A stretch of 64,000 nucleotides of DNA from Candidatus Binatus sp. (GCF_030646925.1 NZ_JAUSKL010000124.1:48298-112297), one strand, 5' to 3'; counted from the first letter of the stretch, positions 2,218-24,281 are shown. Made by a program: numbers and translations. The notes: generated by a model from the sequence alone, not told the origin.

Positions 2218-2232
2218 GGTTCATGACCTTGG

Positions 2233-2922: not shown

Positions 2923-3333
2923 ATGAGCCGGTCGTTGAGCAATCCGATTTGGGGATGGCTGAGCCTCACGATCGCCGCGGTCTATTCCGTGATTTGGCCG
3001 GGATGGCGCGACGCGCATCCGGCGCCGCATCCGTTTGCGATCTGTTTCGTGCTGCGATGGTTTCACGCGATCACATGGATTTTGCTCGCAGCTTCATTCT
3101 TCATCCGATCGTCTATTGCGCCGTCGCGAACCACGCTCGCCAACGCGATCGCGCCCGCCGCGATGCTCTGTTACGTCGCGTTCATCGCCACCTTCGCATA
3201 TTTCCGCACGACCCAGGTTGGTCGAGAGCAACCTCCTCGATTTCGGACGAGACGCTCATTGTGCCGAAGCCGGGGACAAGCCAATCCCTGCGGGGTGTCT
3301 GAATGCGCAATCCTGGCAGCTCGACGCCGCTGA
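2923..3333 (+). CDS. small hydrophobic membrane protein, copy 1 (3' end diverged, reads through into Arg-rich tail)
   Basis: ORF with ~3 predicted TM segments (IWPGWRDAHP..FHAITWILLAASFFI..); body nearly identical to copy at 6369-6602; lacks the native stop seen in copy 2. Confidence 0.4.
   Translation: MSRSLSNPIWGWLSLTIAAVYSVIWPGWRDAHPAPHPFAICFVLRWFHAITWILLAASFFIRSSIAPSRTTLANAIAPAAMLCYVAFIATFAYFRTTQVGREQPPRFRTRRSLCRSRGQANPCGVSECAILAARRR
2941..3216. repeat. direct repeat copy 1 (~276 bp, ~90% identical to 6321-6596)
   Basis: Nucleotide alignment by eye: aatccgatttggggatggctgag...cgcacgaccca vs aatccgctctggggacggctgag...cgcacgaccca. Confidence 0.85.
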
Positions 3334-8198: not shown

Positions 8199-9122
8199 AT
8201 GAAAATACTGGTGATGGGCGCCGGCGCGGTCGGCTCGTACTTCGGCGCGCGCCTGCAAGCCGCGGGCGAAGACGTGGTGCTATGCGCGCGGGGCCAGCAT
8301 CTCGAGGCGATTCGCGAGCGAGGCCTCGACATCGCGAGTCCTCGCGGCGATCTTAAAATTCCCGTCACCGCGACCGCCAAGCCCGCGGAGTGCGCGCCGT
8401 ACGATCTGATTATTTTCAGCGTGAAGGGTTATGACACTGACGCAGCGGCTGAATTGATCCAGGGATGCATCAAGCCGGGCGGCGCGATTCTCACGATCCA
8501 GAACGGCGTCGAAAATGAAGCGCGCCTCGCCGCGATTTTCGGCGCCGACGCCGTGATGGGTGGTAACGCGCGCGTCGGCGTCGAGATGGTTGCGCCCGGC
8601 AAAATCGTTCACTTCAGCACGGGCCATATCGATTTCGGCGAACTCGACGGCCGCGAGAGCGATCGCGCGCTTAAAATCGCCGACGCGTTTCGGCGCGCCG
8701 GCATCCTCGGCCAGCTATCTGCCGATCTCAAGACGCTGCGCTGGGACAAGTTGATTTGGAACGGCTCGCTGAATACAATCGCGACGCTGACGCGGCGGCG
8801 GGTCTGCGAACTGCTCGACGATCCTGAAAGTATGCGGCTGCTGCGCACGCTGATGACGGAAATCGCCGCCGTCGGACGCGCCGAGGGCGCAAAGCTCGGC
8901 GATGATCGCGTCGAGGCTTACATCGCGCATTCGCAGAAAAATCTGCGCGCGCTCAAAACCTCGACCCAGCAGGACCTCGAGCACGGCAAGCCGCTCGAAT
9001 ACGACGAGCTGAGCGGCGCCGTAGTGCGAGCGGCGCGCCGGCATCGAATCGATGTGCCGGCCAACGAGACTATTTACGCCCTGCTGCGATTGCTCGACGG
9101 CGCGTCGCGCTCGATTTCCTAG
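8199..9122 (+). CDS. panE: 2-dehydropantoate 2-reductase (ketopantoate reductase)
   Basis: MKILVMGAGAVGSYFGARL Rossmann N-terminus and ApbA/PanE C-terminal domain. Confidence 0.85.
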   Translation: MKILVMGAGAVGSYFGARLQAAGEDVVLCARGQHLEAIRERGLDIASPRGDLKIPVTATAKPAECAPYDLIIFSVKGYDTDAAAELIQGCIKPGGAILTIQNGVENEARLAAIFGADAVMGGNARVGVEMVAPGKIVHFSTGHIDFGELDGRESDRALKIADAFRRAGILGQLSADLKTLRWDKLIWNGSLNTIATLTRRRVCELLDDPESMRLLRTLMTEIAAVGRAEGAKLGDDRVEAYIAHSQKNLRALKTSTQQDLEHGKPLEYDELSGAVVRAARRHRIDVPANETIYALLRLLDGASRSIS

Positions 9123-9128
9123 CCGACT

Positions 9129-9842
9129 CTAACGCTTCTCGAACTGCTTGGCGCCGAACAGGATGTCCCAGCTTTTCTTGTCCTGCTGCGGCTGCTGCGC
9201 CGCCGCGCGCATCTTCTCGACTTCCGCGCCCATCACGGCAAAGCCGCGCTGCGTCGCCGGTCGCGCGCGAAGTTCGTCGTACCATTTCTTCAGATTGGGA
9301 AAGTCCTCGAGTTCCTGCCCCTGCATGCTGTGCGGCACCAGCCACGGATAGATCGCGATATCCGCGATCGAGTAGTCGCCCGCAATATATTTCGCCTCGC
9401 CGAGTCGTTTATCGATCACTCCATAGATGCGTTTGGCTTCGTTAGTGTAACGATTGATCGCGTATTCGATTTTTTCTGGCGCGTAACGGCGAAAATGATG
9501 CGCCTGGCCGAGCATCGGACCGACGCTCGCCATCTGGAACATCAGCCACTGCAACACTTCATACTTGCCGCGCGGGTCAGTCGGCATCAGTTGGCCGGTT
9601 TTTTCCGCGAGATAGATCAGGATCGCGCCGGATTCGAAAATCGAAATCGGCTTGCCATCGGGGCCATCGGAATCGGTGAGCGCGGGCATCCGGTTGTTCG
9701 GACTGATTTTCAAAAATTCGGGCTTGAACTGATCACCGGCGCCGATATTGACCGGAATCACGTTGTACTTGAGCCCGACTTCCTCGAGCATCCAGGTCAC
9801 TTTGTAGCCGTTCGGCGTGGGCCAGAAATATACGTCGATCAT
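9129..9842 (-). CDS. glutathione S-transferase (Nu-class, YghU/YfcG-like)
   Basis: MIDVYFWPTPNGYKVTWMLEEVGL..., ESGAILIYLAEK motif. Confidence 0.85.
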   Translation of the reverse strand: MIDVYFWPTPNGYKVTWMLEEVGLKYNVIPVNIGAGDQFKPEFLKISPNNRMPALTDSDGPDGKPISIFESGAILIYLAEKTGQLMPTDPRGKYEVLQWLMFQMASVGPMLGQAHHFRRYAPEKIEYAINRYTNEAKRIYGVIDKRLGEAKYIAGDYSIADIAIYPWLVPHSMQGQELEDFPNLKKWYDELRARPATQRGFAVMGAEVEKMRAAAQQPQQDKKSWDILFGAKQFEKR

Positions 9843-9968
9843 GCGCTGCTCCTTGCTGGACTCGACAGTTTTCGCGCACGGCCTGTGCGGGATGCGCCGT
9901 TGCAGATTGCAACTTTGATCACTTGCGCACCCGACGCAAGGCAAACTCGATCGAGCGGCAAGGGCCCG

Positions 9969-11097
9969 TTAAGTCGGCATCGTATCGGCGTCACCTTTGC
10001 GCACGCCCATCAGGTACGCCTCGATAAAATCATCGATCGCGCCGTCCAGCACCGCATCCGTGTTGCCGATCTCGACGCCGGTGCGATGGTCCTTCACCAT
10101 CCGATACGGCTGCAGCACGTACGATCGAATCTGGCTGCCCCACGCGATGTCTTTCTTGTCCTTGCTGAACTTCTCGAGTTCTTCCTTTTTCTTGCGCTGC
10201 TCAAGCTCGAACAAACGTGCGCGCAAAATCTTCATCGCCATCGCGCGATTCTTATGCTGCGAGCGCTCGTTCTGGCACGTCACCACGATGCCGCTCGGGA
10301 GGTGCGTGAAGCGCACCGCCGAGTCAGTCTTGTTAACGTGTTGTCCACCCGCCCCCGACGCGCGAAACGTATCGATCCGCAAATCAGCCGGATTGATGAT
10401 GATTTCGATCGTGTCGTCCACCGCTGGAAAAACGAACACCGACGCAAACGACGTATGCCGCCGCGCGTTGGCGTCGAAGGGCGAGATTCGCACCAGCCGA
10501 TGAATCCCGGCCTCGGCCTTGAGATAGCCGTACGCGAAATCTCCTTCCACCGTCACAGTCGCACTCTTGATTCCCGCGCCGTCGCCGGGTTGCAGGTCCG
10601 CGATTTCGGTGCTGAAGCCGCGGCGCTCGGCCCATCGCAGGTAGAGCCGCAGCAGCATCTCGGCCCAATCCTGCGCCTCCATGCCGCCGGCGCCGGGATG
10701 GATCGATACGATCGCGCCGAGCCGATCGTGCTCGCCGCTCAGCATCAGGCGTAGTTCCTGACGCTCGAGCTCGATGCGCGACGCGTCGAGCGCCGACGCG
10801 GTTTCGCGCGCGGCTTCGGAGTCGTCGGCGCCCTCTTCCTCCGCCATCTGGAGAAACACCCGCGCCTCGTCGAGCTTGTCGCGCAGCATCTTGTAGCCCG
10901 TGAGCTGCGCGCGCAGTTGTTCCTGCTCTTTCAGCGACGCCTGCGCTTTTTCGCGGTCGTCCCAGAAATCCTGTTTGGCGGATTGTTCGACGAGCTGGGT
11001 CTGGCGGGTGGTCAGTGCGGGGACGTCAAAGACGCCTCCCGAGCTTATCGGCGCGATCATCGAACTCGGCAAGCTGCTGCTTCATGTCGCTGAGCAT
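9969..11097 (-). CDS. prfB: peptide chain release factor 2 with programmed +1 frameshift (join 11097..11029 and 11027..9969)
   Basis: Frame-0 ORF from ATG at 11097 (MLSDMKQQLAEFDDRADKLGRRL) ends at CTT TGA C preceded by GGGAGG; +1 frame continues DVPALTT...; GGQ motif (SGAGGQHVNKT) and SPF motif downstream. Confidence 0.9.
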
Positions 11098-11198
11098 TGG
11101 AAATTTCACCTCACCTCGCGCCGGGATTAATCGGCGCCTGAGGATTCATTGTGACACAAGCGCGCGCTCCGATTAATGGGGCCTGGCTCCGCTCCTTT

Positions 11199-12383
11199 TT
11201 ACTTCGGGATTGGCTTTTGCAAAATGACGAGCACGTTTTTCCCTCGTTGCGGCACGCGTTGTCTTCCAACAAGCCCCTGCAACCGCACCTTTCCGGCGCT
11301 TATCCAATCACGAATCCAGTCTTTGAGGTCACTTTCCCAGACCATCGGTACCGATGTTGTTATTTGCCAAAGAATGTCGTGCGGAACGCGGCCTTTCTCA
11401 GCCAGCTCAGCTTCGACTTTTGCCAGTCCGATCTCGATAAATCGTTGCCGCAACGAATCGTAATAATCCGAATCGTTCATAACACCGGCGGAAAACAGTT
11501 CCCTATTTGCACTGCGATCGATTCGCCTGCGCTGACGCGCCGCAGCTCGAGCTGATTCCATTGCCTGCATGGCCATCTTTTCCGATTCCTTGAAGACTGC
11601 CATACCCTCCGGGTGGCGCGTTGCGCAGATCAAATGGAAATGGGTTCGATTGATCTCGGGATGCAATACAATAGCGCTACTAACAAAATCGAAACCGCCA
11701 ACGCGCTTTACGTTCTCGGAATAGAGTCTGACCGCCTCCTCATCGCGATCCACGCCGGTCAAACCTTCCAACCCCTTCCGGTAGGTTTCTGAACCAAACA
11801 GCGCTGTGAAGCTGTCCTGTGTATCTTTTTGAGGAGAATCCAAAAAACGGCGTATGTGACCGGTCATGAAGTTAATCAAAACTTCAACTGGATGAAGCTT
11901 CAAGATCGGTTCGATCGTGTTCATTGCGAAGCCCGTCCAGCCTGTCGGATCGATAAATACAAACGGAAAGGATCCTGACCCGCCATCCCTCACGAAGCTG
12001 AGAATCTCCCCGACGGCTCCCTCGAGTTCTCCGTTCAGCGTTTTGACGTCGATATCCGAAATGCTTGCGGTAAATTTCTGGAGTTGTTCGTACGCTCCTG
12101 GATCTCTTTCGAGGAAGAAGCAACGCAATCGTAACACGTGTCCGCGCTTCAGTTGCGTTGCTCGAGCCTTTCTCAATTCTTCCAAAGCGATTGAGAAGGA
12201 GCTATCGCTTAGCTTGCTCGATTGCACATTCCAAGGGCCGGCGAAACAGTCTATGTAGGTTATGCAAGCCCACTTAGACCCAACCTTGTGAGCAAAGCGC
12301 TCAAGGTACTTTCGAAGAATGAGATGCTTTACAAGGGTTTGTTCCCGACCAATGTATAGATCTTCCTCGCTCAAATTCCCCAC
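11199..12383 (-). CDS. three-Cys-motif partner protein TcmP-like (partner of Gp37/Gp68-family protein)
   Basis: 394-aa protein with YIDCFAGPW and FVFIDPTGW motifs; adjacency to DUF5131 protein matches the TcmP context; lower GC. Confidence 0.55.
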   Translation of the reverse strand: MGNLSEEDLYIGREQTLVKHLILRKYLERFAHKVGSKWACITYIDCFAGPWNVQSSKLSDSSFSIALEELRKARATQLKRGHVLRLRCFFLERDPGAYEQLQKFTASISDIDVKTLNGELEGAVGEILSFVRDGGSGSFPFVFIDPTGWTGFAMNTIEPILKLHPVEVLINFMTGHIRRFLDSPQKDTQDSFTALFGSETYRKGLEGLTGVDRDEEAVRLYSENVKRVGGFDFVSSAIVLHPEINRTHFHLICATRHPEGMAVFKESEKMAMQAMESARAAARQRRRIDRSANRELFSAGVMNDSDYYDSLRQRFIEIGLAKVEAELAEKGRVPHDILWQITTSVPMVWESDLKDWIRDWISAGKVRLQGLVGRQRVPQRGKNVLVILQKPIPK

Positions 12384-12429
12384 CTTTGAATCGCAATGGT
12401 TTTTATCGTTCTAGGTGACAGGAAGTTAT

Positions 12430-13182
12430 CTAATTTGGGTTCTTCCACTTGTGCGTCGTGGGAAACTCCCCATAAGTCTTTCCACGCAGCCGGCGTCCAG
12501 TCTCATGCTTTCGCACGCCGCCCCATTGCTTGAAAAAGAATGGAACACCGAACTGTCGACATTGACCTAAAAGAGATAGAACCCACTTCTCTTCCATAGG
12601 CCTTGCCTTCGGTCCGCTCTCGCCACCGACAATCACCCAGTCGATTCCGCTAAGGTCGAGCGTGCCGAGATCTTCCAGCAGAGGCTCTACCGAAAGAAAT
12701 CTGACGCAAGCAGGAGTCTCCAATAGAGCCTTAATCCGAGGCAAGCCGTATTTTCGATCTTCAACGCTCACTCCGAACCAAACATTTGGTAACTCTCCCA
12801 ACCAAGCGAGTGGCCCTGAAATGAGCTCCTTCATTCTCGTGTGGCGCTTCGTAAGAACTTGGTAGACATGCCAATTCGCCTCTTCCATGACGCGGCCGAC
12901 ATCCCCTATGTAGCTAATCGGCACGCCTTCTTGGAAGAGATCACTCATCGAGTTTACAAATATCATACGCGGAGTTAGCCACCTCAAAGGCTCGCGCAAC
13001 TTTTCTGGTACAAGTCGCAGATCAAAGCCCTGTTCGAAGGGATGTCCCCTCACCCCGCGGAACCGCTGGGCAAATCGCTCGGCGTAGCAGTTCTTGCATC
13101 CTGGACTTACTTTCACGCACCCTCTAATCGGATTCCAGGTAGCATCCGTCCATTCGATGGTACTCTTGACGCTCATTGTCAA
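12430..13182 (-). CDS. phage Gp37/Gp68-family protein (DUF5131) with three-Cys motif
   Basis: N-terminal TIEWTDATWNPIRGCVKVSPGCKNCYA (Cys-x6-Cys-x2-Cys) characteristic of the family; 250 aa. Confidence 0.65.
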   Translation of the reverse strand: MTMSVKSTIEWTDATWNPIRGCVKVSPGCKNCYAERFAQRFRGVRGHPFEQGFDLRLVPEKLREPLRWLTPRMIFVNSMSDLFQEGVPISYIGDVGRVMEEANWHVYQVLTKRHTRMKELISGPLAWLGELPNVWFGVSVEDRKYGLPRIKALLETPACVRFLSVEPLLEDLGTLDLSGIDWVIVGGESGPKARPMEEKWVLSLLGQCRQFGVPFFFKQWGGVRKHETGRRLRGKTYGEFPTTHKWKNPN

Positions 13183-13388
13183 ACCCTCGAGCGAAACTTA
13201 GGCGAAACTGGTCTGAAGTTCAACCGCCATTTCGCGAGCAGGCGGCTGCTGACGTTGATGCACCTGCACGCACATGACAATTTTCGCCGCAATAATGAGA
13301 GGTCACATTCCGTCGCGAGGCCCCGATTAATGGGGTGTCCGCCCGCCCGCCGGTGCGCCTGTATATCTGGGCGGCGCGAAATGCCGAG

Positions 13389-13420
13389 TGGCTCCCCGGG
13401 CCGGATTCGAACCAGCGACA
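13389..13420. repeat. 32-nt direct copy of the 3' end of tRNA-Asn (att-like island boundary)
   Basis: tggctccccgggccggattcgaaccagcgaca identical to 17399-17430. Confidence 0.8.
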
Positions 13421-13439
13421 CTCGAATACAGATCACAGA

Positions 13440-13784
13440 TTAGATCGTGATGAATGCTTCCAGTTTGGCGCGCACGAGTTGCGCGATTGCCTGCGGGACC
13501 TTCGCACCGGCATATCGGATTGGTCGCGCCATCGTATCGATGCTGCAGATGTGACTGGTAAGGATCTCACCCGAAATCGGTAACCCGGGTGGTAGAACGA
13601 CGCTGGTGGGAAATGGCCGAACACGAGACGTGATCGGGCAAACAAACGCCAATCCCGTGTTTTCGGCGAACAATGCTGACGAGACGACCAGCGCGGGCCG
13701 CCTGCCGGCCTGCTCCCTGCCTCGAGTCGGATCGAAATCGGTCCAAACCAGATCGCCGGCGCCCGGCACGTAGTTTCGCGCCAT
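13440..13784 (-). CDS. mazF: MazF/PemK-family type II toxin (mRNA interferase)
   Basis: MARNYVPGAGDLVWTDFDPTRGREQAGRRPALVVS... PemK/MazF fold signature; start overlaps antitoxin stop. Confidence 0.75.
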   Translation of the reverse strand: MARNYVPGAGDLVWTDFDPTRGREQAGRRPALVVSSALFAENTGLAFVCPITSRVRPFPTSVVLPPGLPISGEILTSHICSIDTMARPIRYAGAKVPQAIAQLVRAKLEAFITI

Positions 13785-14044
13785 TACTCCTCGACGACCT
13801 CGCGCCCGCGATCGGCCCCCCACTCGAATGCAGAGGAATAAGCCGCCCGCCACTGCTTAGGACTCTTCCCCCTGAAAAGCCCTTCCAATGTGAAAGACGG
13901 CGCAGCGCGACGGACAACGATATTGCCGTCCTGGGTCTCAACCTCGACGCGTTCACCGCCGCTGAGCCCGGCGCTCCTTGCGACCTCTGCGGGAAGCCTG
14001 ACTGCGAGGCTCTTGCCCCATTTTCCAACTGTTGCACGTGACAT
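13784..14044 (-). CDS. mazE: MazE/AbrB-type antitoxin (SpoVT-AbrB domain)
   Basis: MSRATVGKWGKSLAVRLPAEVARSAGL... swapped-hairpin AbrB-like N-terminus; directly upstream of mazF. Confidence 0.65.
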   Translation of the reverse strand: MSRATVGKWGKSLAVRLPAEVARSAGLSGGERVEVETQDGNIVVRRAAPSFTLEGLFRGKSPKQWRAAYSSAFEWGADRGREVVEE

Positions 14045-14215
14045 ACGGCGCTTTCCACACCCCTGAGATATTCTCAGGATATCATCGCGGGCGAGCCTTT
14101 TCAAACGAGCGAATACCGGGATGTGGCGGATGGCCAAGCGCAGGCCGTCAAAAAAGACGCCACCCGATCTCGTCGGGGCAATTTAATGGGCGGTCCGGCG
14201 AGCCGCAGATGCTGG

Positions 14216-15736
14216 CTATCTGGGATCGAATGCCGCAGCCAGATCGCGATTTCCTCCTTGGGCCGCCCGTTCTTGTTCGAGCCTGGCCAGGCGCGCTTCG
14301 AGACGTGCGATCTTCTCAACCTGCCGGCGCAGTTGTTCTATCTGCGCTGCTTGCTCCTTGTTCTTCCTGGTTTCTTTCTGTAGTTCGTTCAGCAGCATCG
14401 AGGTAAGCATCGAGTAGCGCACCGACTGGACCTTGCCATCGTCATCGTGGACCACCAGTTCCGGATAGACACGATAGACTTCCTCGGCCACCAGCCCATA
14501 CTGCTTGATAGCTTGCGGATCGTCCTTGTAGCGGAATGTCACTGGATGCAGCTTCATCAGACCTTCGGTCGAGTCTCCCTTATCGTTAATGTCGCGCTTG
14601 TAGCGAGCAGACGAGATCACTACTCCGAGCTTGCCGCTGCCATTAACTACAACATCGCTGCCTGTTACCGCCGTGCCCGCGATGCCCGCAATAAAAGTCT
14701 GCGTCTGCGTGCCCTGTAATCCGATTCGTATAGTCCCGGTGTCAGTCGAAAGACCCAAGCTCGCGATGTGGATGTTGTTCTTACCGGTGGTCAGGTTGAA
14801 GCCCGCCTGGAACCCGAGCGCGGCATTGGTTTGGCCGGTAGTGTTGTTAAACAGCGCCTGCAGTCCCACAGCCGTGTTGAAGCTGCCGGTTGTGTTCTTA
14901 AGCAGAGCTTGCGCTCCGTCGGCCGTGTTCTGCACGGCGGTGGTGTTGCTAAAGAGAGCCTTCGCGCCGGTGGCCGTGTTGTTGTTGCCCGAGGTGTTAT
15001 TGAACAGCGCCGACGACCCGCCCGCGGTGTTGCTGACGCCGATCGTGTTCGATGTCAGCGCCGAGTCTCCGCTGGCGGTGTTGAGGTTACCGGTAGTGTT
15101 GCTTCGGAGCGCGCTCGCGCCGTCAGCGGCATTGTTGCCGCCCGTGGTGTTGTTAAACAGCGCAAACGCGCCGGTCGCAGTGTTGCTGACTCCCGTCGTG
15201 TTTAATATCAGCGCCGAGGCTCCGTCAGCGGTATTGAAGATACCGGTAGTATTGAATCTCAGCGCCTGGGATCCGGTCCCGGTGTTGCTCGCACCCGAGG
15301 TGTTGAACTGCAAGGCGTCCAGCCCGGTCGCGGTATTGTCGGAACCGGTCGTGTTAGTTCGAAGGCTGTTGAGCCCGGTGGCAGAATTGCCGCCTCCAGT
15401 GGTGTTGGCCGCCAGCGCGCGGCGGCCGATGGCGGTGTTGGCGCCGCCGGAGGTGTTGGAGCTAAGCGCGGATTCGCCCGTAGCCGTGTTGTTGTTGCCG
15501 CCAACATTTCCCTTGAGGGCGCTCGCTCCACAGGCGGTATTGCCACCGCCGGTGGTATCGGCATTGAGGGCGTTGAATCCGAGCGCAGTGTTGTTGGTGC
15601 CCGTGGTGACGCTCGCCAAGGCGCCGCTTCCCAATTTGGTGTTGCTCTGGGCCAGCACGACAGCGGGGCTTGAGATCGCCGCCGCCAACACGACGATGAG
15701 GGTAGCAACGAAACGCAAACTTGAGTTCTTCATCAC
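14216..15736 (-). CDS. secreted repeat protein with C-terminal peptidase S74 / tail-fibre intramolecular chaperone domain and coiled-coil
   Basis: Signal peptide, ~25 tandem 14-15 aa repeats (NTTGxxNTAxGxxAL), then IASLG..ARYKRDI..LHPVTFRYK..GLVAEEVYRVYPELV chaperone-of-endosialidase motif, then heptad-like C-terminus. Confidence 0.7.
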   Translation of the reverse strand: MMKNSSLRFVATLIVVLAAAISSPAVVLAQSNTKLGSGALASVTTGTNNTALGFNALNADTTGGGNTACGASALKGNVGGNNNTATGESALSSNTSGGANTAIGRRALAANTTGGGNSATGLNSLRTNTTGSDNTATGLDALQFNTSGASNTGTGSQALRFNTTGIFNTADGASALILNTTGVSNTATGAFALFNNTTGGNNAADGASALRSNTTGNLNTASGDSALTSNTIGVSNTAGGSSALFNNTSGNNNTATGAKALFSNTTAVQNTADGAQALLKNTTGSFNTAVGLQALFNNTTGQTNAALGFQAGFNLTTGKNNIHIASLGLSTDTGTIRIGLQGTQTQTFIAGIAGTAVTGSDVVVNGSGKLGVVISSARYKRDINDKGDSTEGLMKLHPVTFRYKDDPQAIKQYGLVAEEVYRVYPELVVHDDDGKVQSVRYSMLTSMLLNELQKETRKNKEQAAQIEQLRRQVEKIARLEARLARLEQERAAQGGNRDLAAAFDPR

Positions 15737-16426
15737 GTTCTCTCCTCCAGAGCGCTCCAGTAGCGGCTGCTCCCCGAGCGCGATCGCCGATACCTCGCCG
15801 CCCTCGGGTAGATGCTAGGCTGTCCCTAGGATGTGGTATGCCCCAAGCGAGGGGGTTAGAGCAAGGGAGCAGCCGGAAGCTGAAACTCGCCGAGGCCGTC
15901 GCCGACGACGCACCTGCGTGGGCATAACGCCGAGGTAGAAAATCAGGATTGCGCTGCCGCTGATCTGGCGACCTGCTGACGCGCTACTTCCGCTCGAATG
16001 CGGCCGCCAGATCGCGATCTTCGTTCTTCGACAGCGTCGCGCGCTCGCAAGAGCTAAGCGCCACCCGGTTATCGGCCGGCCTTCGGTCCGCCATTTCGAA
16101 ATTAGGTGGTGCGCCCGGCTCTGCGCCTCACGACGAAGGGGCCAGGGAAGTTGATCGAGTCTGACCTCACGGTGTCGGTAAGGGTCTAATTTCTCGATAC
16201 GGCGGCCTCGTTGTCGGCGAAATTCCATTCCGAAATATTATTGGACTAGAATGCGGAAAACTGAAGCTAAGCGAATCACGCGTTCTTCGACGCTACCACA
16301 TCCTTGTTTCACCACCGAGTCCACTTTGACGCCAAATCCGCCGAAGGGGTTCTTGCACGGGAAGCGAGTGCTAATCTCAAGTTTGAGACCGAGCCCGCCG
16401 AGCTGCGCGAGATAGGAGTTAGCCAC

Positions 16427-17134
16427 ATGAAAAAGCTTTTTGCTGTGCTGCTGCTAGGAGTCGGCGCACTTCTCCACGCCCCTTCGCACGCAGCCGAAAT
16501 ACGATCTCAGCGGGAGTCGAGTCCGTACGCTTCCAGTGCTTCTGGAAGCCAGCGATACTCAATCCCACCGTCGAAGCAAACTCTGGAAATTCCGACCATC
16601 GAAGTTCCGGCTGCTCTCGAACTTCCGCCTGTCGTAGTCGGTTGCTGGCACGGAGAAGATGTCTTGGATGACGTGACGGTGGTGCTCGGAGACCACGGAG
16701 CTGATTCCTATACCTCCACCATCTACACCCTATGCTATCGCAAACGCGGCGACGGCCCCTATGAACTCTCCCTCGCTACCGCCACCGCCGGTTCCACCAA
16801 CCCGTGGGCGGGGCTCGGAGGCTTCTTGCTGGCCTCCCGAATCGCGGCGGTAGAGGCGCAGTTTTCGGACGAAAAACTGGAACTTGTGCCCGAAGACGAG
16901 CCGACTCGGTTTCGATTGCACATTAGTTTTCGCATGACCACTCACCTGTCTCTGTTCGGGATGTACGTTGGTCAGAGCAGTTACAATTGTGATGAATTGA
17001 TGTACTGCCAAGTCCGCTCCCCCTCCTCCGTCTACTGCCAAAGCGCAGGCACCACCGAACGCGATGACGGAACTTGGAAGGTGCTGGGCCACGGTCATGT
17101 CGAATTGACTCGGCTGGCCAACCAAGCTTCATGA
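16427..17134 (+). CDS. secreted hypothetical protein
   Basis: Signal peptide MKKLFAVLLLGVGALLHAPSHAAE; GGAG RBS; no family recognised. Confidence 0.5.
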   Translation: MKKLFAVLLLGVGALLHAPSHAAEIRSQRESSPYASSASGSQRYSIPPSKQTLEIPTIEVPAALELPPVVVGCWHGEDVLDDVTVVLGDHGADSYTSTIYTLCYRKRGDGPYELSLATATAGSTNPWAGLGGFLLASRIAAVEAQFSDEKLELVPEDEPTRFRLHISFRMTTHLSLFGMYVGQSSYNCDELMYCQVRSPSSVYCQSAGTTERDDGTWKVLGHGHVELTRLANQAS

Positions 17135-17398
17135 GAAACGGTGGGGCGTCGAGCAAACCGGTTAACCTCCCCTGTCCCACAGTCGGCTTGACGCCAAGCC
17201 TTCTAATACTGGATATCAGCCGACAGATCAGAGTGCCGCGCATCCTGCCCCGTTGGCCCATCCATGAGATTGAGAAGGCGGCGTGCAGCGGGCGTCTTGT
17301 CTTGGGGGACCCCACCAAAGTCCCCACAGTTGGCAAGTGACAGTAAGCCCGTTCTGAACTGAGGGGCCAAATGATCTTCGCCAATGCTAGAGTTTTAG

Positions 17399-17474
17399 TG
17401 GCTCCCCGGGCCGGATTCGAACCAGCGACATGACGGTTAACAGCCGTCCGCTCTACCGACTGAGCTACCGGGGA
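17399..17474 (-). tRNA. tRNA-Asn (anticodon GTT)
   Basis: rc reads TCCCCGG TA GCTC AGTCGGTA GAGC G GACGG CTGTTAA CCGTC ATGTC GCTGG TTCGAAT CCGGC CCGGGGA G CCA. Confidence 0.9.
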
Positions 17475-17590
17475 GCAATCCGATGCGGATTCGGAACTAT
17501 TCTTGGTATCTGCGTAGCGGATTCAAATCAAGGGTTCGCGACCGCCAACTGCGAATGCCGATACATTATGCGCTGAGCCTCGACTGACAC

Positions 17591-18427
17591 TCAATCGGGC
17601 GCTTTGGTCCCGCGCAGCGCCTTGTCCTGCACCTCGGCCATCGCCTTGACCGTCTCGACGATATACCTCGCGGGCAGAACTCCCGCGAGGCCCGAGAAAA
17701 CCGGGTCGCTGGTGAGCGAACTGTTCGCCTCAAGGATGCCCCACAGCGCAAAGCGCAACCCGGCGCTGACGAAGACCGGCGCACCGCTCGAGAATCCAGG
17801 CGTGCCGCCGCCGTCGAGCAACGACAGTTGCTGCAGGCCGGCGCCAACCACTTCGGTTTCGGCCGGCACGGGCACCGAGACATGGCCGAAGCGTGCGAGC
17901 GCTTCGAATCGCGGACGCGAGGCGCCGACGGTCGCGGCCGTCAGGTAGTAAATCTGCGCGCCGGTTTCGGGACGCGTCAGCGGGTCGTCGTTGCCAAGCA
18001 GTGAGCTCAGCGGTATCGGAGCAATCGCGGCGCCCTCGGAGGTAAACGGCACCGCGGCGACGTCGGCCTTTTCATTCAGCGGATCGAGCACCCATTTGGC
18101 CTCTGGCGGGAGCGGTTCTTCGCGCATCGCGGCGGTTTTCGAATCTTCGAGGGTGAGGAACAGCCCGCTGCGTTCGTTGCCTTGTTGATCGAGCAGATTG
18201 TGGCGAGCGGTCACGAGATAGACGAAGGACCGGCCCGGAAACGCCTCGCTCGGCACGGCGACAAAGAAGGCGGTGCCGACCTGCACGACGCGGCCGTTGC
18301 CATGGCTCACGATACCGGCGACGTTGCGCAAGGTTTGAGTCGGTACTGTATCGGCGACGGATTTAGCCGGCGCTGAAAGCGCGGCGGCGATCGCCAGCGC
18401 GAGAGTCGAGGCTACGGCATTTCTCAT
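17591..18427 (-). CDS. secreted trypsin-like serine peptidase (S1 family)
   Basis: Signal peptide MRNAVASTLALAIAAALSAPA; TARHNL His motif and GFSSGAPVF Ser motif. Confidence 0.6.
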   Translation of the reverse strand: MRNAVASTLALAIAAALSAPAKSVADTVPTQTLRNVAGIVSHGNGRVVQVGTAFFVAVPSEAFPGRSFVYLVTARHNLLDQQGNERSGLFLTLEDSKTAAMREEPLPPEAKWVLDPLNEKADVAAVPFTSEGAAIAPIPLSSLLGNDDPLTRPETGAQIYYLTAATVGASRPRFEALARFGHVSVPVPAETEVVGAGLQQLSLLDGGGTPGFSSGAPVFVSAGLRFALWGILEANSSLTSDPVFSGLAGVLPARYIVETVKAMAEVQDKALRGTKAPD

Positions 18428-18610
18428 TCGTGGGGATTCACTCACAGGCTTAAATTTTTTGGGGACGATTCCGACGTGACAGGATAGCAGTTGGAGGGGA
18501 GTTGCGGCCAATCAGAATTCAGCAATAGAAACGGCGCGGCAAAAGATTGAATCTTCGACCGCGCCGCGGATTAAGGCTCAAGTTATGCTGCTAGATGACG
18601 GCGCATATTA

Positions 18611-18946
18611 CTATCGATTGCGGCCTCCGCCGCCCGCTCCACCGCCGCCACGACGGCGATCGTCTCCGCCACCGCCGCCGCCGCCACGCGGACCGCCGGT
18701 GCTGGCGCGCGCTTCATCGATCTTGATCCGGCGTCCTTTCAGATCGGTGTCGTTCAGCGTCTGGATCGCGTTCGCCGCCTCGCTCGCCTCCGCCATCTCG
18801 ACGAAACCAAAGCCGCGCGATTGTCCGGAAAATTTGTCCGTCACGACCACCGCGCTCTCGACCTTCCCCGCCTGCGCAAACAGTTCAGCCAAGTCCTCCT
18901 GGGTAACCGCGTAGGCGAGATTCCCTACATACAACTTCGTAGGCAT
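18611..18946 (-). CDS. RNA-binding protein with RRM domain and Gly/Arg-rich tail
   Basis: KLYVGNL (RNP-2) and RGFGFVEM (RNP-1) motifs. Confidence 0.85.
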   Translation of the reverse strand: MPTKLYVGNLAYAVTQEDLAELFAQAGKVESAVVVTDKFSGQSRGFGFVEMAEASEAANAIQTLNDTDLKGRRIKIDEARASTGGPRGGGGGGGDDRRRGGGGAGGGGRNR

Positions 18947-19238
18947 ACAAGCCCTCCTTCTGAATTTGCCGGATAGCTCCTAAACAGACGACCCTGCGGG
19001 GGAACCTCGGGATCAGTGAGAAAGGCGGCGTCCGAGCGTTATCGATGATTTCAAACATATGCGCGCGACTGGTTAGTGTAAAGGACGGATGCGGCGGCGG
19101 CGCGACGCGCCGAAAACGAGCGGTGCAGATTCATCGAGCGGAGTTGTTCCGTGTCATCCCGAGCGAGCCTTGCGACGAGGGATCCCGGAGCCGGGATTTC
19201 TCGCTGCGCTCGAAATGACACGGAAAGAGTGTGGCGAT

Positions 19239-19895
19239 CTAATGACGCGTTGCGGCCGCGTCGGCAATCGGGGCGTCGAGCAGTGGCGCGAGGAAGTCGC
19301 GGATGTAGCGATTCACCAGTTCTGGCTTTTCCTGCTGCACCCAATGGCCCGAGTCGGGGATGTACTTGATCTCGAAGGGGCCGGTGAAAAGATCCTCCAT
19401 GTTGTAGGTGAGTTCCACCCCGAGTGCGAAATCCTGCTCGCCCCAGATGAGCATCGTGGGCGCGTCGATCTTGCGATTGAGCCAGTCGTTCTGCCCGGGC
19501 TTCGCCATCAGGCCGGAGCGAAAATTCGCGCGGTAGTAATTGATCGCGGCGGTGATCGAATAAGGATTGCGGAACGCGGCGCGGAAGAATTGCAAATCGT
19601 CGTCGGTGAAAACGTTTTTCTGCACGGCGCCATCGCGAAGCGCGCGCGTGAGCAGTTCGTAATCGTGGCGGCGGAACATCACGCCGACGGGCGCGTCGGT
19701 CTCGCCGTAACCGCGCATCTCGGGCGCGACACAGTCGAAGCTATCGGAGAGCGCGCGGATCTGATGCCGATACGAGTACCAGCACTCGGGGAATCCGTGC
19801 AGCATCACGACGAGCGGACCGGCGCCCGCGCGCGCGAGCCGCATCGTGAGGCCGCTCTTGAGCGTCAATTTTTCGAAGCGCCAGGGCTCGGCCAT
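19239..19895 (-). CDS. alpha/beta-hydrolase-fold protein, epoxide-hydrolase-like, apparently lacking the nucleophile-elbow segment
   Basis: HGFPECWYSYRHQ N-terminus and C-terminal GHW..QE motifs present but only 218 aa; no GHDWG-type nucleophile region. Confidence 0.55.
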   Translation of the reverse strand: MAEPWRFEKLTLKSGLTMRLARAGAGPLVVMLHGFPECWYSYRHQIRALSDSFDCVAPEMRGYGETDAPVGVMFRRHDYELLTRALRDGAVQKNVFTDDDLQFFRAAFRNPYSITAAINYYRANFRSGLMAKPGQNDWLNRKIDAPTMLIWGEQDFALGVELTYNMEDLFTGPFEIKYIPDSGHWVQQEKPELVNRYIRDFLAPLLDAPIADAAATRH

Positions 19896-19913
19896 CGTCG
19901 ATGCCGCTTCAGC

Positions 19914-21146
19914 CTACTTGTAGCGCGGCAGCAATTCCTTGCCGAAGGTTTCGATCTGCTTCCTGTTCTCGGCGAGCGGCAGCAAGCCCTGGTCGCCCTG
20001 CCATACGAACCATTCCGGATGGATATTCTCGACCATCGCGTCGAATTGGCGGCGCACCTGATCGACGGTGCCGGTATAGGCGAAGTCGGCGCGCTCCATC
20101 CGCGCGACGGTGCATTCGGACTGCGGGAGGATTCCGTTCGCGACCGGAAACTTCGCTTCGTCCTCGGGCTCGCGCCAGGCTTCGAAGAATCCAAAATGAT
20201 AGAAGAATTTTTGAAAGGCGGTGCCGCAGATTCCCTGCTGCGCGAGCGCGCGCGCCTGGTCGCGATTCTCCGCAAAGTACATCGCGTGCAGCACGCCGAT
20301 TCCCTGCCCGAGATCGAGCCTGCGGCCCGCCTTGCGCGCTTCCTCGCGAAACGCCTCGGCGAGCTTGCGGACTGCGGCCGGTTGCGAGATCAGAATCGTC
20401 GGCGTGATGTTTTCGCGCGCGCACCATCGCACGGTCTCCTCGCTGATCGAAAAAGCCTGGAACAGCGGCGGATGCGGTTTCTGGTACGGCTTCGGCACCA
20501 CGCTGATTTTCTGGATGCGGCCGAGCTCGTCCACTTCGCCCGGGAAGCCGTACTCGCGAGTCCATTCGTGCGCGAGCCACGGCGTGCCCTCCTGCGGATA
20601 CGGATACTCGTAGTACTTGCCCTTGAAACGGAACGGCTCGTCGGCCCATGCGAGTTTGAGAAAGCGGAAGACTTCTTCGAAGGCTTCGCGATTGATCCGA
20701 TCGGTCTCGCTCTTGTCGCTGGTGGTGGCGCCGACGTGAATCTTCTGCGCCATCTGGTTGAGCCATCGCGATTGATAGCCGCGCGCGAAGCCGACGAAGG
20801 TGCGGCCCTTGGTCAATTGATCGAGCCACGAAATTTCGAGCGCGAGGCGGAGCGGATTCCACCCCGGGAGGACGTAGCCGATCGGGCCCACCTTGATGCG
20901 CTTGGTGTTGTGAATCACGTGCTGGGTGAGTGTCGGCAGGCTGCCGATCTCGAGGCCTTCACTGTGCAGGTGATGCTCGGGGAAACAGACCGCATCGAAG
21001 CCGACCTCCTCGGCGAGTTGCGCAAGTTCGACGACCTCCTCGATCATGCGCTGCCATCGTTCGGTTTGATTTGCGATCGGGCGCTGGCTGCGGCGTTCTT
21101 CCATCGTCGCGGGCAGCGTGGGCAGGAAAAAGTACATCGATTTCAT
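19914..21146 (-). CDS. LLM-class flavin-dependent oxidoreductase (luciferase-like monooxygenase)
   Basis: TIM-barrel LLM signatures (FDAVCFPEHH, PKPYQKPHPPL); GGAGAG RBS before MKSMYF. Confidence 0.85.
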   Translation of the reverse strand: MKSMYFFLPTLPATMEERRSQRPIANQTERWQRMIEEVVELAQLAEEVGFDAVCFPEHHLHSEGLEIGSLPTLTQHVIHNTKRIKVGPIGYVLPGWNPLRLALEISWLDQLTKGRTFVGFARGYQSRWLNQMAQKIHVGATTSDKSETDRINREAFEEVFRFLKLAWADEPFRFKGKYYEYPYPQEGTPWLAHEWTREYGFPGEVDELGRIQKISVVPKPYQKPHPPLFQAFSISEETVRWCARENITPTILISQPAAVRKLAEAFREEARKAGRRLDLGQGIGVLHAMYFAENRDQARALAQQGICGTAFQKFFYHFGFFEAWREPEDEAKFPVANGILPQSECTVARMERADFAYTGTVDQVRRQFDAMVENIHPEWFVWQGDQGLLPLAENRKQIETFGKELLPRYK

Positions 21147-21258
21147 GCGGCTCTCCTTCTTCCTCTCAGCATTAGTCCTCGAGAAAAAAGTTTGCCAGCG
21201 AAGTACGTCGATGAAGTTCGCGTCGCGAAGAGGTGGTCCGGCGAGCGTCGCCCGCGGA

Positions 21259-21274
21259 TGTTTCACGTGAAACA
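21259..21274. promoter_or_regulatory. perfect 16-bp palindrome TGTTTCACGTGAAACA (candidate operator, site 1)
   Basis: Self-complementary; 113 bp upstream of LLM gene start. Confidence 0.4.
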
Positions 21275-21368
21275 TTTTTTCAGCCATCTCGTCTGTGTTG
21301 AGAACGCACCTGGTTTCACGAGGAATCGCAGCGAGGTGAGAAGTCCGCGCGCTCATCCGCAGGTGCGA

Positions 21369-21384
21369 TGTTTCACGTGAAACG
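21369..21384. promoter_or_regulatory. near-identical palindrome TGTTTCACGTGAAACG (candidate operator, site 2)
   Basis: 15/16 identical to site 1, shares extended GATGTTTCACGTGAAAC. Confidence 0.4.
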
Positions 21385-21399
21385 TCTGAAAGTTCAGGA

Positions 21400-21800
21400 G
21401 AGTTCAGGGGAATGAAACGCGAAGGGACCGAGGCGGATTCTCCTGTGGCACAGGCTTCAGCCTGTGGAGGTGTGATCGCCGAAGCCCGGCGTGCACGCGC
21501 GTTCGATCAAAATCAAAGGCGATCAACAGGAACGGAAGAGGATCCGGGATTCTTCGCTGCGCTCAGAATGACAAAATGTGATGACGCGACGAGTAGGCGG
21601 CATGCGGGATGATAGCAGGGGCGTCGCGGTGGCGCCGCAAGGCGGCGACATCGCGACAGCACCCTCACCGGCCTCTTTATCCTGGAGCGATTCGGCCCTT
21701 CGGCCCGAAGTCGGCTTCGCGTGCGTTCCCGCGACTTCGGCCTCCTCTCCCTCAACAAAGCGCGATTTTGTTGGTGTTGACACTCAGACCGGAAAGTGAT
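21400..21800. repeat. cluster of GC-rich palindromic intergenic repeat units (shared with 19151-19230 and 26338-26700)
   Basis: Segments ggatccgggattcttcgctgcgctcagaatgaca and cgattcggcccttcggcccgaagtcggcttcgcg recur elsewhere in window. Confidence 0.45.
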
Positions 21801-21812
21801 TAAATTCCTGTC

Positions 21813-22741
21813 ATGCAGAACCTAGCTTCATTCGACAGAATGTTCGCGACAGAAGGTGGCTGCAAGCGCTATCTGGAACGCAAGCGCTGGCCGAATGGTG
21901 TGACCTGTCCGCGATGCGGAGCAAAAGAGAAAGTCTATGCACTCGCGGCGCGGCCCTTCCATTGGGTTTGCAAAAGCGGCGCTGAAACGCTCGACAAAGA
22001 GACTGGCGAATTGGTGATTTGCCACAAGCGCAATGGATACCGATTCAGCGTCATCACACGCACAATCTTTCAGGACACAAAGATTCCTCTCAAGCTGTGG
22101 TTCAAGATCGGATTCTTGATGATCACCGCGAAGAAGGGCGTTAGCTCGCTGCAGGTCCGACGCATGGTATTTGGCGAATACTCAGGCACCGATTGGCGCA
22201 CCTGCTGGTACGTCTGCCATCGCTGGCGCGCCGCGATGAAAGGCGATGCGATCTCGCTCACTGGCGAAGTCGAGGTTGACGAAACTTACGTCGGCGGCAA
22301 GGCTTTCAACCGTCATAAAAGCGCCAAGAAACAGCGGCGCGGTGGATGGGACAAAGTTGCAGTCATCGGCGCGATCGCACGCAAAGGAATGGTCGTCGCA
22401 AAAGGGATCGAAAATACCGATACTGAAACCCTCGATAGCTTTGTGCATTCCGCCGTAGGCCCGAACGTGAGCTTAGTCGCGACCGATGAACACTCTGGAT
22501 ACCGGCTGCTTGGCCGCGATCTTCCGCACGGCGTCGTGCGCCACAGTGCGGGCGAATACGTAGTCTGCGCGGTTCACACTCAGACAATCGAGGGATTCTG
22601 CTGAAGCGCGGCATCATGGGCAGTTACCACAAAGTCAGTAAAGACTATCTGCCGCTTTATATGAACGAATTTTCTTGGCGCTACAACAATCGGAAAAATC
22701 CAAACGCATTTGCTGATTTGATTACGACGTGCGGTAACTAG
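21813..22741 (+). pseudogene. IS1595-family (ISXO2-like) transposase, frameshifted
   Basis: N-terminal zinc-ribbon (CPRCGAKE...C) and ISXO2-like DDE domain end prematurely at IEGFC-stop (22604); conserved C-terminal LKRGIMGSYHKVSKDYLPLYMNEFSWRYNNR continues in +1 frame to 22741. Confidence 0.7.
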
Positions 22742-22770
22742 CCGTCCGAATCTGGAAGCGCTAAAGTATC

Positions 22771-22965
22771 GTGGTGGCTTCCATTCGAAATGGCAACGGA
22801 AAAAAGGCCCCCAAAAAATACGTTCCAAGCGAAAAACAACGCACAGAGGACGAGCGCATAAAAGAAAAACTCGAACGTCTGACCGATGCTGATTTAAGGG
22901 AATTTGACCGAGTATTAGAGCGTGCCTTCAAACAACCACAAACGGCGCGAAAAAGTGGCGACTAA
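22771..22965 (+). CDS. hypothetical small protein
   Basis: 64-aa Lys/Glu-rich ORF in low-GC segment next to IS remnant. Confidence 0.3.
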   Translation: MVASIRNGNGKKAPKKYVPSEKQRTEDERIKEKLERLTDADLREFDRVLERAFKQPQTARKSGD

Positions 22966-23404
22966 GAACTTGCGTCTCTCTGCCGCGATATTGTGCGAGA
23001 GAGTGCTTGTGGAAAAAGACGAGGTCCTGAGCATTATCAGGCTCGTAGACACGTTCTATGTACACGTTCCGAAAGAACTCCCAGAGGCCGCAAATCCGGT
23101 AGTTCAATTGACCGCGTTGCTGTCTTTCAAACGAGGTGACGAACCAGATACCGATAAGCATCAGGTGAAATTGAAGATTCAGCCGCCAACGGGATCGGCT
23201 GCAGATTTACCGATAGTGATGGACTTTGTTTTCAAACCTGGCGATATCGCAAGCGCCAATTTGATTATGAATATCCAACTCGGAATAAAAACATTCGGGC
23301 GATTCCGATTGGACGTATTTGTCGATGATCAGGGACCGGTCGCTGAAATTCCGTTTATGCTCCTTGAGCAGCCTGAACAGAAAACTCCTGAGAGAGTCCA
23401 CTAG
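22922..23404 (+). CDS. hypothetical protein
   Basis: 160-aa ORF, low GC (~48%), no family recognised. Confidence 0.4.
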   Translation: MPSNNHKRREKVATKNLRLSAAILCERVLVEKDEVLSIIRLVDTFYVHVPKELPEAANPVVQLTALLSFKRGDEPDTDKHQVKLKIQPPTGSAADLPIVMDFVFKPGDIASANLIMNIQLGIKTFGRFRLDVFVDDQGPVAEIPFMLLEQPEQKTPERVH

Positions 23405-23693
23405 ATGCGGTGGTTACGACCGGCTCGGTCAGGGGCGCGTGCTCGATCAACACCTTAATTGGAGAAGCGATCAAACCTTTTAGTTCTCTCTCCAGCGCGT
23501 CATCGTCCAAATGATCATCGGAGTATTCTGCGAGGCGGAGTTCGATCGCGCCAACGAGACTCTGAGCGGCATCATCACTATCAAGATGCATATCCCAACT
23601 TTGAGAAACCAACCAATCCTCAAAGTCGTTCAAAGTGATATCGCGAACCAGATAGGCGAGCAGCCGTTCGCGTATTTGTGATTCGGTAATCAT
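23355..23693 (-). CDS. hypothetical acidic protein
   Basis: Start MITESQIRERLLAYL; divergent from and sharing start-codon position with 23692 ORF. Confidence 0.35.
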   Translation of the reverse strand: MITESQIRERLLAYLVRDITLNDFEDWLVSQSWDMHLDSDDAAQSLVGAIELRLAEYSDDHLDDDALERELKGLIASPIKVLIEHAPLTEPVVTTASSGLSQEFSVQAAQGA

Positions 23694-24033
23694 GGCAAAG
23701 AAACCAATACCACAAATCGTCCGCATCGGTGAAACGGAACTGCGTCGGCTGTTCAATGAGAATTATTTGCCGCAGATTGGCACGAACAAAATCGAGGAAC
23801 GGGTGATGAGAGGCGCGGGGAAGCATCCTGCGCCAGCACCAGCGCAGGAGCCGTACTGTACCGAGAGCCAACAGGTTTCTTATCGTGATCCTGCGACTGG
23901 CAAAGAGCTTGCTCGCGCACATCGGTATGTACGACCGGACGGGACGCTCGGCGCAAGCGGCAAGCCCGACCCCAAGCGAGTCTCCGTGAACGACGTTCTT
24001 TACCGAATCATCAAACAAAAAAACCGGCCATAG
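23692..24033 (+). CDS. hypothetical protein
   Basis: 113-aa ORF, low GC. Confidence 0.35.
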   Translation: MAKKPIPQIVRIGETELRRLFNENYLPQIGTNKIEERVMRGAGKHPAPAPAQEPYCTESQQVSYRDPATGKELARAHRYVRPDGTLGASGKPDPKRVSVNDVLYRIIKQKNRP

Positions 24034-24281
24034 CCTAAAAGCCGACCTGTCACGTCGATACGAACGGTATTCAAGTTGAGTGTCGATTGCGACAAAATCG
24101 CCCAACAAAGCGGGCGAGGGAAAGGAGACGGCCACTGCTCAAAAGGGACAGGGCCGCGGCGAGGAACTCGCCGCGGCTCTTTCAAATCAATTCCCGTTCA
24201 ATTCAATTTCCGCTCGAATGAATTCCTGCGGAAATCAATTCCCGCAGAGACTTTGCAGTCTCCGCGGATCTGTCGAAGCAG

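Follow-up and report, generated by a model that had tools for sequence, protein, structure and literature searches.

Insertion at tRNA-Asn is familiar from the high-pathogenicity island of Yersinia, which is found at asn tRNA genes, where a tyrosine integrase acts on the 3' end of the tRNA-Asn gene and a short direct repeat results. Among the enterobacterial tRNA-Asn islands there are also variants that have lost an attachment (att) site or the integrase and are thereby fixed in place. Here we describe an islet of 4.0 kb that lies between an intact tRNA-Asn gene and a copy of that gene's 3' end in 64,000 nucleotides of DNA from Candidatus Binatus sp. (GCF_030646925.1, NZ_JAUSKL010000124.1:48298-112297), a stretch referred to throughout as the window. 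Unlike this islet, the enterobacterial islands measure 35-45 kb, carry other cargo and normally keep their integrase beside the tRNA. We consider it probable that the islet is the remnant of a tyrosine-integrase element that inserted at the tRNA-Asn 3' end and whose integrase has since been deleted.

Islets without an integrase have been described in other bacteria. The ssrA islands of Dehalococcoides are strain-specific islets in tandem, bounded by repeats of about 20 nt, many of which lack an integrase and are possible CIMEs, or cis-mobilizable elements (McMurdie et al. 2011, PMC3146451). The tycheposon remnants of Prochlorococcus are tRNA-anchored islands with partial tRNAs, fragmented integrases and cargo that was left behind (Hackl et al., 10.1101/2020.12.28.424599). 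When the Binatus islet is set beside these, its two att cores are found to be identical and its integration and transfer genes to be absent (Pfam, NCBIfam and PADLOC scans), which are the marks of a CIME. It also has the intact tRNA, the 3'-end repeat and the break in synteny of a tRNA island; a functional integrase inside is lacking.

The repeat at tRNA-Asn and the trace of an integrase

The intact tRNA-Asn(GTT) gene, the target of integration, occupies 17399-17474 on the minus strand (ARAGORN; Rfam RF00005, 68.2 bits). As a first-pass annotation of this DNA had claimed, a perfect copy of its 3' end lies about 4 kb away in the same orientation, although its length is 34 nt and not 32. The repeat, AGTGGCTCCCCGGGCCGGATTCGAACCAGCGACA, matches at 34 of 34 positions between 13387-13420 and 17397-17430 and spans the variable loop, T arm, 3' acceptor strand and encoded CCA of the tRNA (nt 45-76) together with two flanking bases; a match was given by none of 100 shuffles. 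The proximal copy (17397-17430: tRNA nt 45-76 and the 2 nt of 3' flank) is taken as the attL core and the distal one (13387-13420), which has no tRNA 5' half beside it, as the attR core, with the islet proper between them at 13421-17396. Identity stops sharply at both edges of the repeat, and nothing of the tRNA 5' half can be recognised beside the distal copy. The 64 kb contain no third copy, three mismatches being allowed, and a looser local-alignment scan of 9000-22000 for degenerate tRNA copies gave nothing above shuffle level. This holds for 11130-11200 as well, the place where degenerate att copies had been suspected: none was found there by the mismatch search or by the local-alignment scan.

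A Logan assembly from run SRR13727527 is 100% identical to 17401-19177 and ends 30 nt inside the repeat, as would be expected because an assembly graph built with k=31 stops at such a repeat. Just beyond the distal copy come 6-8 nt (in tRNA sense, CTCGGC) similar to what natively flanks the tRNA in the closest relatives, L115 and L083 (numbers of this kind denote the loci of relatives). At the tRNA-Asn locus L115 is the closest of all to the window (91% protein identity), and the native flank there, CACTCGGC.., is nearer to the flank of the distal copy (CTCGGC..) than to that of the proximal copy, a match of 6-8 nt being weak evidence. Such a likeness would follow if the distal copy were the original, displaced by the insertion.

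The junction was compared with 26 loci of relatives in which a gene for a homologous 283/284-aa protein is followed by tRNA-Asn; the closest prfB relatives of the window are Binatus and Binataceae metagenome-assembled genomes (MAGs). In all 26 the genes 5' of tRNA-Asn, encoding an abhydrolase, an RRM protein and the 283-aa protein, are syntenic with the window, and homology ends at 17398/17399, which is the CCA end of the tRNA. The alignment of related genomes that had been proposed as a check therefore places the loss of synteny exactly at the CCA end. Past this point about 15 distinct flanks are seen among the 24 loci with enough sequence, including two flank types among contigs that encode an identical protein P0019 and six among those that encode an identical P0053. 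Since synteny ends at the CCA and the flanks differ, the tRNA-Asn 3' end is a hypervariable junction. Several metagenome contigs from different samples break off right at the CCA end or no more than a few hundred nt past it (L102 and L104, as contig ends; L098, L099, L101 and L103), which is consistent with strain heterogeneity breaking assemblies there. In the window itself the conserved protein beside the tRNA is of 278 aa (17591-18427, minus strand; identical to Q7S58_21380). It has no Pfam or NCBIfam match, its sole match being a weak one to the PADLOC candidate PDC-S45 (E=2.4e-4), and its homologues, at least 233 in number, are always syntenic with the RRM protein and tRNA-Asn.

Bounded islets are also present in the relatives, in which partial tRNA copies were located by local-alignment scan. 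Copies of the tRNA-Asn 3' end of 17-18 nt lie about 3 kb downstream of the tRNA in L105 and L107, and one of 28 nt lies 2.1 kb downstream in L109, where a single beta-lactamase-family gene is enclosed; degenerate copies of about 30 nt are found in L105, L107 and L108. The islets bounded by such partial copies in these four loci range from 1.4 to 4.2 kb and none of them encodes an integrase, while in L105 and L107 there are tandem islets separated by tRNA copies. After the degenerate copies comes TTCGCGGCAGACCTGCACC..., the same sequence that stands directly after the intact tRNA in L106, L087 and L110. Because the tRNA there directly precedes TTCGCGGCAGACCTGCACC..., these three loci are empty sites for the filled ones.

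An intact integrase is present at only one of the 26 loci, L093. The gene encodes a tyrosine integrase of 392 aa (PF00589, E=4.7e-18) on the opposite strand, with its stop codon 37 nt from the tRNA. The element (1262-4531) further comprises the gene of a 257-aa protein of unassigned function and a Prim-Pol gene, and the contig ends before the far att site. This layout of integration plus replication resembles that of tycheposon-like elements and of PICI-like elements (phage-inducible chromosomal islands). A fragment of 30 aa, 70% identical to the L093 integrase (E=5e-7), is found in L092.

DNA alignment of these two loci with the window brings out a common motif, TGTGGGGAC-TTT-[G/T]GTGG[G/A]G[A/T]C, which lies 71-72 nt past the CCA in all three. 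The window version is a 21-nt double 9-mer, TGTGGGGAC TTT GGTGGGGTC (17308-17328, minus strand), starting 71 nt after the CCA end. It is unique within the window and, among 94 fetched loci, was found only in L092 and L093. Alignment of the window with L093 gives the motif a z-score of 8.1 and the preceding 71 nt one of 2.9; past the motif the score falls to about 0. The double 9-mer marks the end of the L093-type element and may be an arm-type site.

On the plus strand, 17309-17362 is the stub of a tyrosine integrase gene, namely its last 17 or so codons and the stop (..TPPKSPQLASDSKPVLN*). The L093 integrase has the C-terminus ..SPQKSPQLLTSRNALPH, and the motif of that locus encodes ..ESPQKSPQLLTSRNALPH*. 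The stop codons are in register, the distance to the tRNA being 36 nt for the window and 37 nt for L093. Judged by motif and position, the final ~95 nt of an L093-type element survive in the window, and the last ~17 codons of the integrase are among them. The three loci then form a three-stage series of decay, with an intact integrase in L093, a fragment in L092 and, in the window, a stub accompanied by both att cores. The first-pass annotation had left the choice between a decayed and a satellite-type island; because an integrase 3' stub of L093 type survives next to the tRNA, we prefer an islet that has decayed to one that was born without an integrase.

Cargo of the islet and neighbouring variable regions

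Pfam and NCBIfam scans return the gene content that had been claimed for the islet: mazEF, an S74-domain repeat protein and a secreted protein, with no integrase. The gene of the MazF/PemK toxin (13440-13784, minus strand; PF02452, E=2.4e-19; NF007386, positions 1-110 of 111) has its stop codon 19 nt from the distal repeat. That of the MazE/AbrB-type antitoxin (13784-14044, minus strand; PF04014, E=4.5e-12; NF007312, positions 2-81 of 82) precedes it, and the genes overlap at 13784, where mazE has its stop and mazF its start; both are full length and form one operon with the antitoxin gene first. By its domains and operon layout the pair is a predicted MazEF type II toxin-antitoxin system.

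The product of the gene at 14216-15736 (minus strand) is a repeat protein of 506 aa, secreted or at the surface. Its N-terminus is signal-peptide-like, at least 12 units follow one another at 51-nt spacing, and at the C-terminus there is a Peptidase_S74 domain, an intramolecular chaperone (PF13884, E=3e-11). The S74 family is very large, with 7950 matches at E<1e-10 that are often annotated as tail-fibre-domain or autotransporter-adhesin-like; the best relatives of the islet protein are just 50-62% identical to it. Some 250 nt upstream of this gene, at 15983-16046 (minus strand), there is probably the leftover of a second S74-family gene. This 3' fragment (..NEDRDLAAAFERK*) includes 36 nt with 81% identity to the 3' end of the S74 gene and has a weak protein similarity (E=7). 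It possibly stems from cassette replacement.

The third product, encoded at 16427-17134 on the plus strand, is a secreted protein of 235 aa with a signal-peptide-like N-terminus, four invariant Cys and an all-beta domain. A phmmer search of 1.84 billion representatives retrieved 12 homologues with nearly full-length alignment. The AlphaFold2 model made from the homologue alignment is all-beta (pLDDT 75.6) and has no significant fold match in the PDB. This is a real gene of a small family whose function is unassigned. Two other views of the open reading frame (ORF) were discarded. It had looked like an orphan in a word-based search that found only the ORF itself, until the full HMMER search gave its relatives. 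Three weak collinear tblastn segments had also suggested a spurious frame lying over a decayed integrase. This is ruled out by Pfam, which is blank even on the read-through translation, by the DNA similarity to L093, which is gone past ~95 nt, and by the full-length homologues with their Cys pattern and the confident all-beta model.

In the Pfam, NCBIfam and PADLOC scans no islet ORF gave a match to integrases, to transposases or to a defence model of PADLOC. The integrase domain PF00589 is found nowhere in the 64-kb window, nor did the L093 integrase find a match there as a tblastn query. Islet DNA had no match in 50,697 phage records and the att sequence none in IMG/VR; plasmid records searched for islet and att yielded no match either, DUF5131 on plasmids excepted. 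The integrase, replication, phage-interference and packaging genes of PICI/P4-like phage satellites are all missing from the islet.

Immediately outside the distal repeat, where the first-pass annotation had put it, is a cassette of two genes, TcmP and DUF5131 (Gp37/Gp68), at 11199-13182 on the minus strand (TIGR04474, 4.6e-43; PF07505, 4e-95), with DUF5131 upstream of TcmP. The cassette matches the PADLOC models PDC-M41B and PDC-M30B at 1e-99 and PDC-M30A at 2e-13, and the pair is a candidate defence system (PADLOC PDC-M30/M41). Its composition is the most foreign in the region, with a GC content of ~0.51 and a GC content at third codon positions (GC3) of 0.55-0.57, against a GC3 of 0.71-0.84 for host genes. 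The cassette is bracketed by a 13-nt sequence, CCCCATTAATCGG, that occurs exactly twice in the window where 0.05 occurrences are expected. The distal copy (13323-13335, minus strand), which is outside the islet, forms one boundary of the cassette; the proximal copy (11169-11181, minus strand) belongs to the conserved upstream region of prfB, where synteny with relatives resumes. From prfB, homology to relatives reaches as far as ~11181-11185. CCCCATTAATCGG is found once per locus in relatives, at the 3' end of lnt and about 100 nt upstream of prfB, and the lnt stop codon is often inside it. The pair of genes recurs in the lnt-prfB spacer of L079, encoding proteins 58% and 76% identical to those of the window. 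A DUF5131 remnant in L052 and a partial TcmP in L050 likewise lie between lnt and prfB, far from any tRNA. The same gene order is seen on the conjugative Acetobacter plasmid NZ_CP021512.1. Because of its own lnt-derived repeat and these placements in L079, L052 and L050, the cassette belongs to a second hotspot at lnt-prfB. The serial insertion at the tRNA that had been envisaged for it fails on this account and for want of a tRNA copy at its far end.

Both lnt and prfB were located in 65 relatives; the spacer between them is of 96-160 nt in most, but 15 have one of 0.4-5.4 kb. In L030 (8360-9915) a 27-nt direct repeat of the lnt end surrounds a 1.5-kb insert with an HD-domain gene; other loci listed with inserts upstream of prfB are L017, L065, L068, L057, L047 and L079. 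The inserts have a lower GC and no evident integrase, and TcmP/DUF5131, an HD-domain protein and other genes are among their cargo. Some have boundaries made by lnt 3'-end repeats, which measure 13 nt in the window and 27 nt in L030.

The order alaS-phoH-ybeY-lnt-prfB is conserved in relatives, and alaS, phoH, ybeY and lnt are all absent from the 64-kb window. No tRNA lies within 10 kb of prfB in relatives and tRNA-Asn is next to prfB in none of 80 loci; one relative has the tRNA-Asn and prfB loci 3.2 Mb apart on a single contig. At 13336-13386, where just 51 nt separate the distal copies of the tRNA repeat and of the lnt-type repeat, two hotspots are thus joined for which no relative shows linkage. 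The simplest reading of the fusion is a lineage-specific rearrangement with its breakpoints at two mobile-element borders, the alternative being a chimeric contig.

The prfB and glutathione S-transferase (GST) genes, adjacent in the window (9945-9968), are 0.3-6.3 kb apart in relatives (for example L002, 11105-13610), so that a third variable spot lies on the opposite flank of prfB. Within prfB (minus strand, ~11030-11097) an apparent ATG start at 11097 (MLSDMKQQLAEFD...) begins a short frame that stops after 23 codons, the main ORF being in another frame. A layout of this kind is what the classical programmed +1 frameshift in the release factor 2 gene would lead one to expect. On the far side of the tRNA, the abhydrolase gene comes directly after luciferase-like monooxygenase and ADC genes in L084, L092 and L105. 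The window has about 4.4 kb of extra DNA in this interval (19914-24282), holding a second luciferase-like monooxygenase (19914-21356), a low-GC stretch at 22.6-24 kb (GC ~0.47-0.52) and an IS1595-family transposase (21813-22604; PF12762, PF12760) whose match breaks off before the DDE profile is complete, at 122 of 153. The alpha/beta-hydrolase ORF at 19239-19895 is of 218 aa, compared with 294-311 aa in relatives. It covers only the first ~50 positions of PF00561, with ~270 nt missing relative to L084 (BLAST), and is probably an internally deleted gene.

Origin of the islet

That this is a tRNA-integrated element, as the first-pass annotation proposed, is supported by the synteny break at the CCA end, by the integrase of L093 and by the bounded islets and empty sites of the relatives. 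The events may be pictured as follows. An L093-type tyrosine-integrase element would have recombined with the segment of tRNA-Asn from T arm to 3' end. Integration would have rebuilt the tRNA from element DNA, giving attL at 17397-17430, and shifted the original 3' end to the far side, where it would now be attR at 13387-13420. As in L093, the integrase gene would formerly have been on the other strand right beside the tRNA, until a later deletion took it and probably other element genes too. The remaining cargo would have stayed put, perhaps with the aid of mazEF at the attR end, which may stabilise the islet or act in defence. The islet is unable to move by itself. Since both att cores are intact, it could still be excised in trans by an integrase of the same specificity, such as one from an incoming element, and it is in this sense that we call it CIME-like. 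The order of these events, the roles of the cargo and the residual mobility are what we infer.

Several observations weigh against this account. The GC of the islet, 0.57-0.63, is close to that of the host. Profiling of GC and codon usage, which had been suggested as a check, speaks on both sides: GC3 is lower in mazEF and the secreted protein gene (0.61-0.67, host genes 0.71-0.84), as is their codon index, but GC3 and codon index of the S74 gene are near the host value. The stub shares only 6 of 18 residues with the L093 integrase, so that its support rests on the DNA motif and the position. Beyond ~95 nt the islet has no similarity to the L093 element, the far end of which is not in the contig. 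The cargo may be a mosaic of several events instead of the cargo of one element. Neither this particular islet nor its exact empty site, with the tRNA followed by the 13386 flank, occurs in any relative. Lastly, the window comes from a MAG, and its join of tRNA-Asn block and prfB block is seen in no other genome.

The decayed element has to be weighed against a satellite-type cargo module that never had its own integrase and moved in trans, the tRNA-Asn site being an array of exchangeable modules. Such a module would fit the two perfect att cores and the fact that five islets in relatives lack an integrase yet are bounded by tRNA-Asn 3' copies, with an intact integrase at one locus of the 26. 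It fits poorly with the integrase 3' end kept right beside the tRNA in the window, for which L092 provides an intermediate stage of decay. The repeats moreover have lengths of 17-18, 28 and 34 nt, a variation that speaks for several unrelated events and not for one system, and the islet ends share no conserved sequence beyond the tRNA copy. Decay of the integrase is also the documented default in tRNA islands (10.1101/2020.12.28.424599; PMC5704250), and we regard a module without an integrase of its own as quite unlikely. The same variation in relatives bears on the idea that the distal copy is what remains of a tandemly duplicated tRNA-Asn gene: they have a single tRNA-Asn here, and partial 3' copies of varying length bound their inserts. 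Although the shared orientation and a match limited to the tRNA sequence and 2 nt would suit a duplicate, random decay should leave scattered mismatches and traces of the 5' half, where we see 34 of 34 identities and then an abrupt loss of similarity at tRNA position 44. The copied block is, besides, the 3' part, as expected of integrase targets, and we give a decayed duplicate next to no credence.

The two remaining alternatives concern the prfB side. One composite island of 11186-17396, TcmP/Gp37 included, might have been built by serial insertion at tRNA-Asn, in that the cassette abuts the distal repeat and is the most foreign of all in its composition, and relatives have, at these loci, none of the DNA that separates prfB from the tRNA in the window. 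No tRNA-derived repeat was found at the prfB end, however, and the cassette has a direct repeat of its own, from the lnt 3' end and prfB upstream region. Relatives L079, L052 and L050 carry the cassette or its remnants between lnt and prfB with no tRNA nearby, and the lnt-prfB spacer varies independently (at least 0.4 kb in 15 of 65 relatives, with the 27-nt repeat of L030); a single composite island is therefore very unlikely. We think it equally improbable that the contig is an assembly artefact in which tRNA-Asn and prfB regions were brought together falsely, so that islet and repeat would be contiguous in no real genome. The source is a MAG contig, lnt precedes prfB in ~65 of 80 relatives and is missing from the whole window, none of the relatives has a tRNA within 10 kb of prfB, and the two loci are 3.2 Mb apart on the contig of one relative, all of which could be signs of a false join. 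Yet a false join is not expected of a 34-nt repeat, which is shorter than reads and large assembler k-mers, and the Logan contig, assembled from the same run, shows no difference from the window as far as the repeat. Islets bounded by tRNA-end repeats recur in several independent assemblies of relatives, and the odd junction, at 13336-13386, is outside the islet and leaves the repeat itself unaffected.

A wider proposal goes beyond the decayed element. The 3' flank of tRNA-Asn in Binatus, and perhaps the lnt 3' end too, might serve as a cassette dock at which integrase-less islets are shuffled between strains in trans. We treat this as a speculation that is unlikely, if somewhat less so than any of the alternatives above. 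If it were true, there would be CIME- or tycheposon-like gene flow in an uncultured phylum without described mobile elements, and the perfect 34-nt repeat would mark a module that is still exchangeable.

Comparison with known systems

The tRNA-Asn gene emerges as a hypervariable integration hotspot in Binatus and the Binataceae, an uncultured lineage widespread in soil and peat, from which a second, independent hotspot at lnt-prfB, carrying the candidate defence pair TcmP/DUF5131, can be set apart. With its mazEF, its fibre-like S74 surface protein and its rare secreted Cys protein, the cargo is typical of the surface and defence genes that vary from strain to strain. The main use of these results is in annotation and comparative genomics.

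The closest parallel is with CIMEs (PMC5704250). The islet has attL and attR at a tRNA 3' end and no functional integrase, with a stub that points to descent from an integrase-bearing element; the tandem islets of the relatives, separated by partial tRNA copies, are as in accretion. It differs in that relaxase, oriT (origin of transfer) and type IV secretion system genes are not seen, so that there is no sign of a conjugative or mobilizable parent; for the L093-type element, too, no genes of conjugation or mobilisation are known. CIMEs were, moreover, defined in Firmicutes, and L093, the only intact relative element, shows an integrase with Prim-Pol. Descent of the islet from an integrase-bearing element is supported by the stub and the motif shared with L093.

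Like the Dehalococcoides ssrA islands (PMC3146451), the locus presents integrase-less islets bounded by a repeat of the 3' end of a small-RNA gene. The target there is tmRNA and the enzyme a serine recombinase, whereas here they are tRNA-Asn and, in a relative, a tyrosine recombinase. With the tycheposons of Prochlorococcus (10.1101/2020.12.28.424599) the shared feature is the pairing of a tyrosine recombinase with a primase/Prim-Pol module in the intact elements, as in L093. Phylum and tRNA differ in this case, and the likeness is one of layout, with no claim of family membership. No new mechanism is called for by any of these comparisons, and the islet is an ordinary kind of genomic island, a CIME-like remnant at the 3' end of tRNA-Asn.

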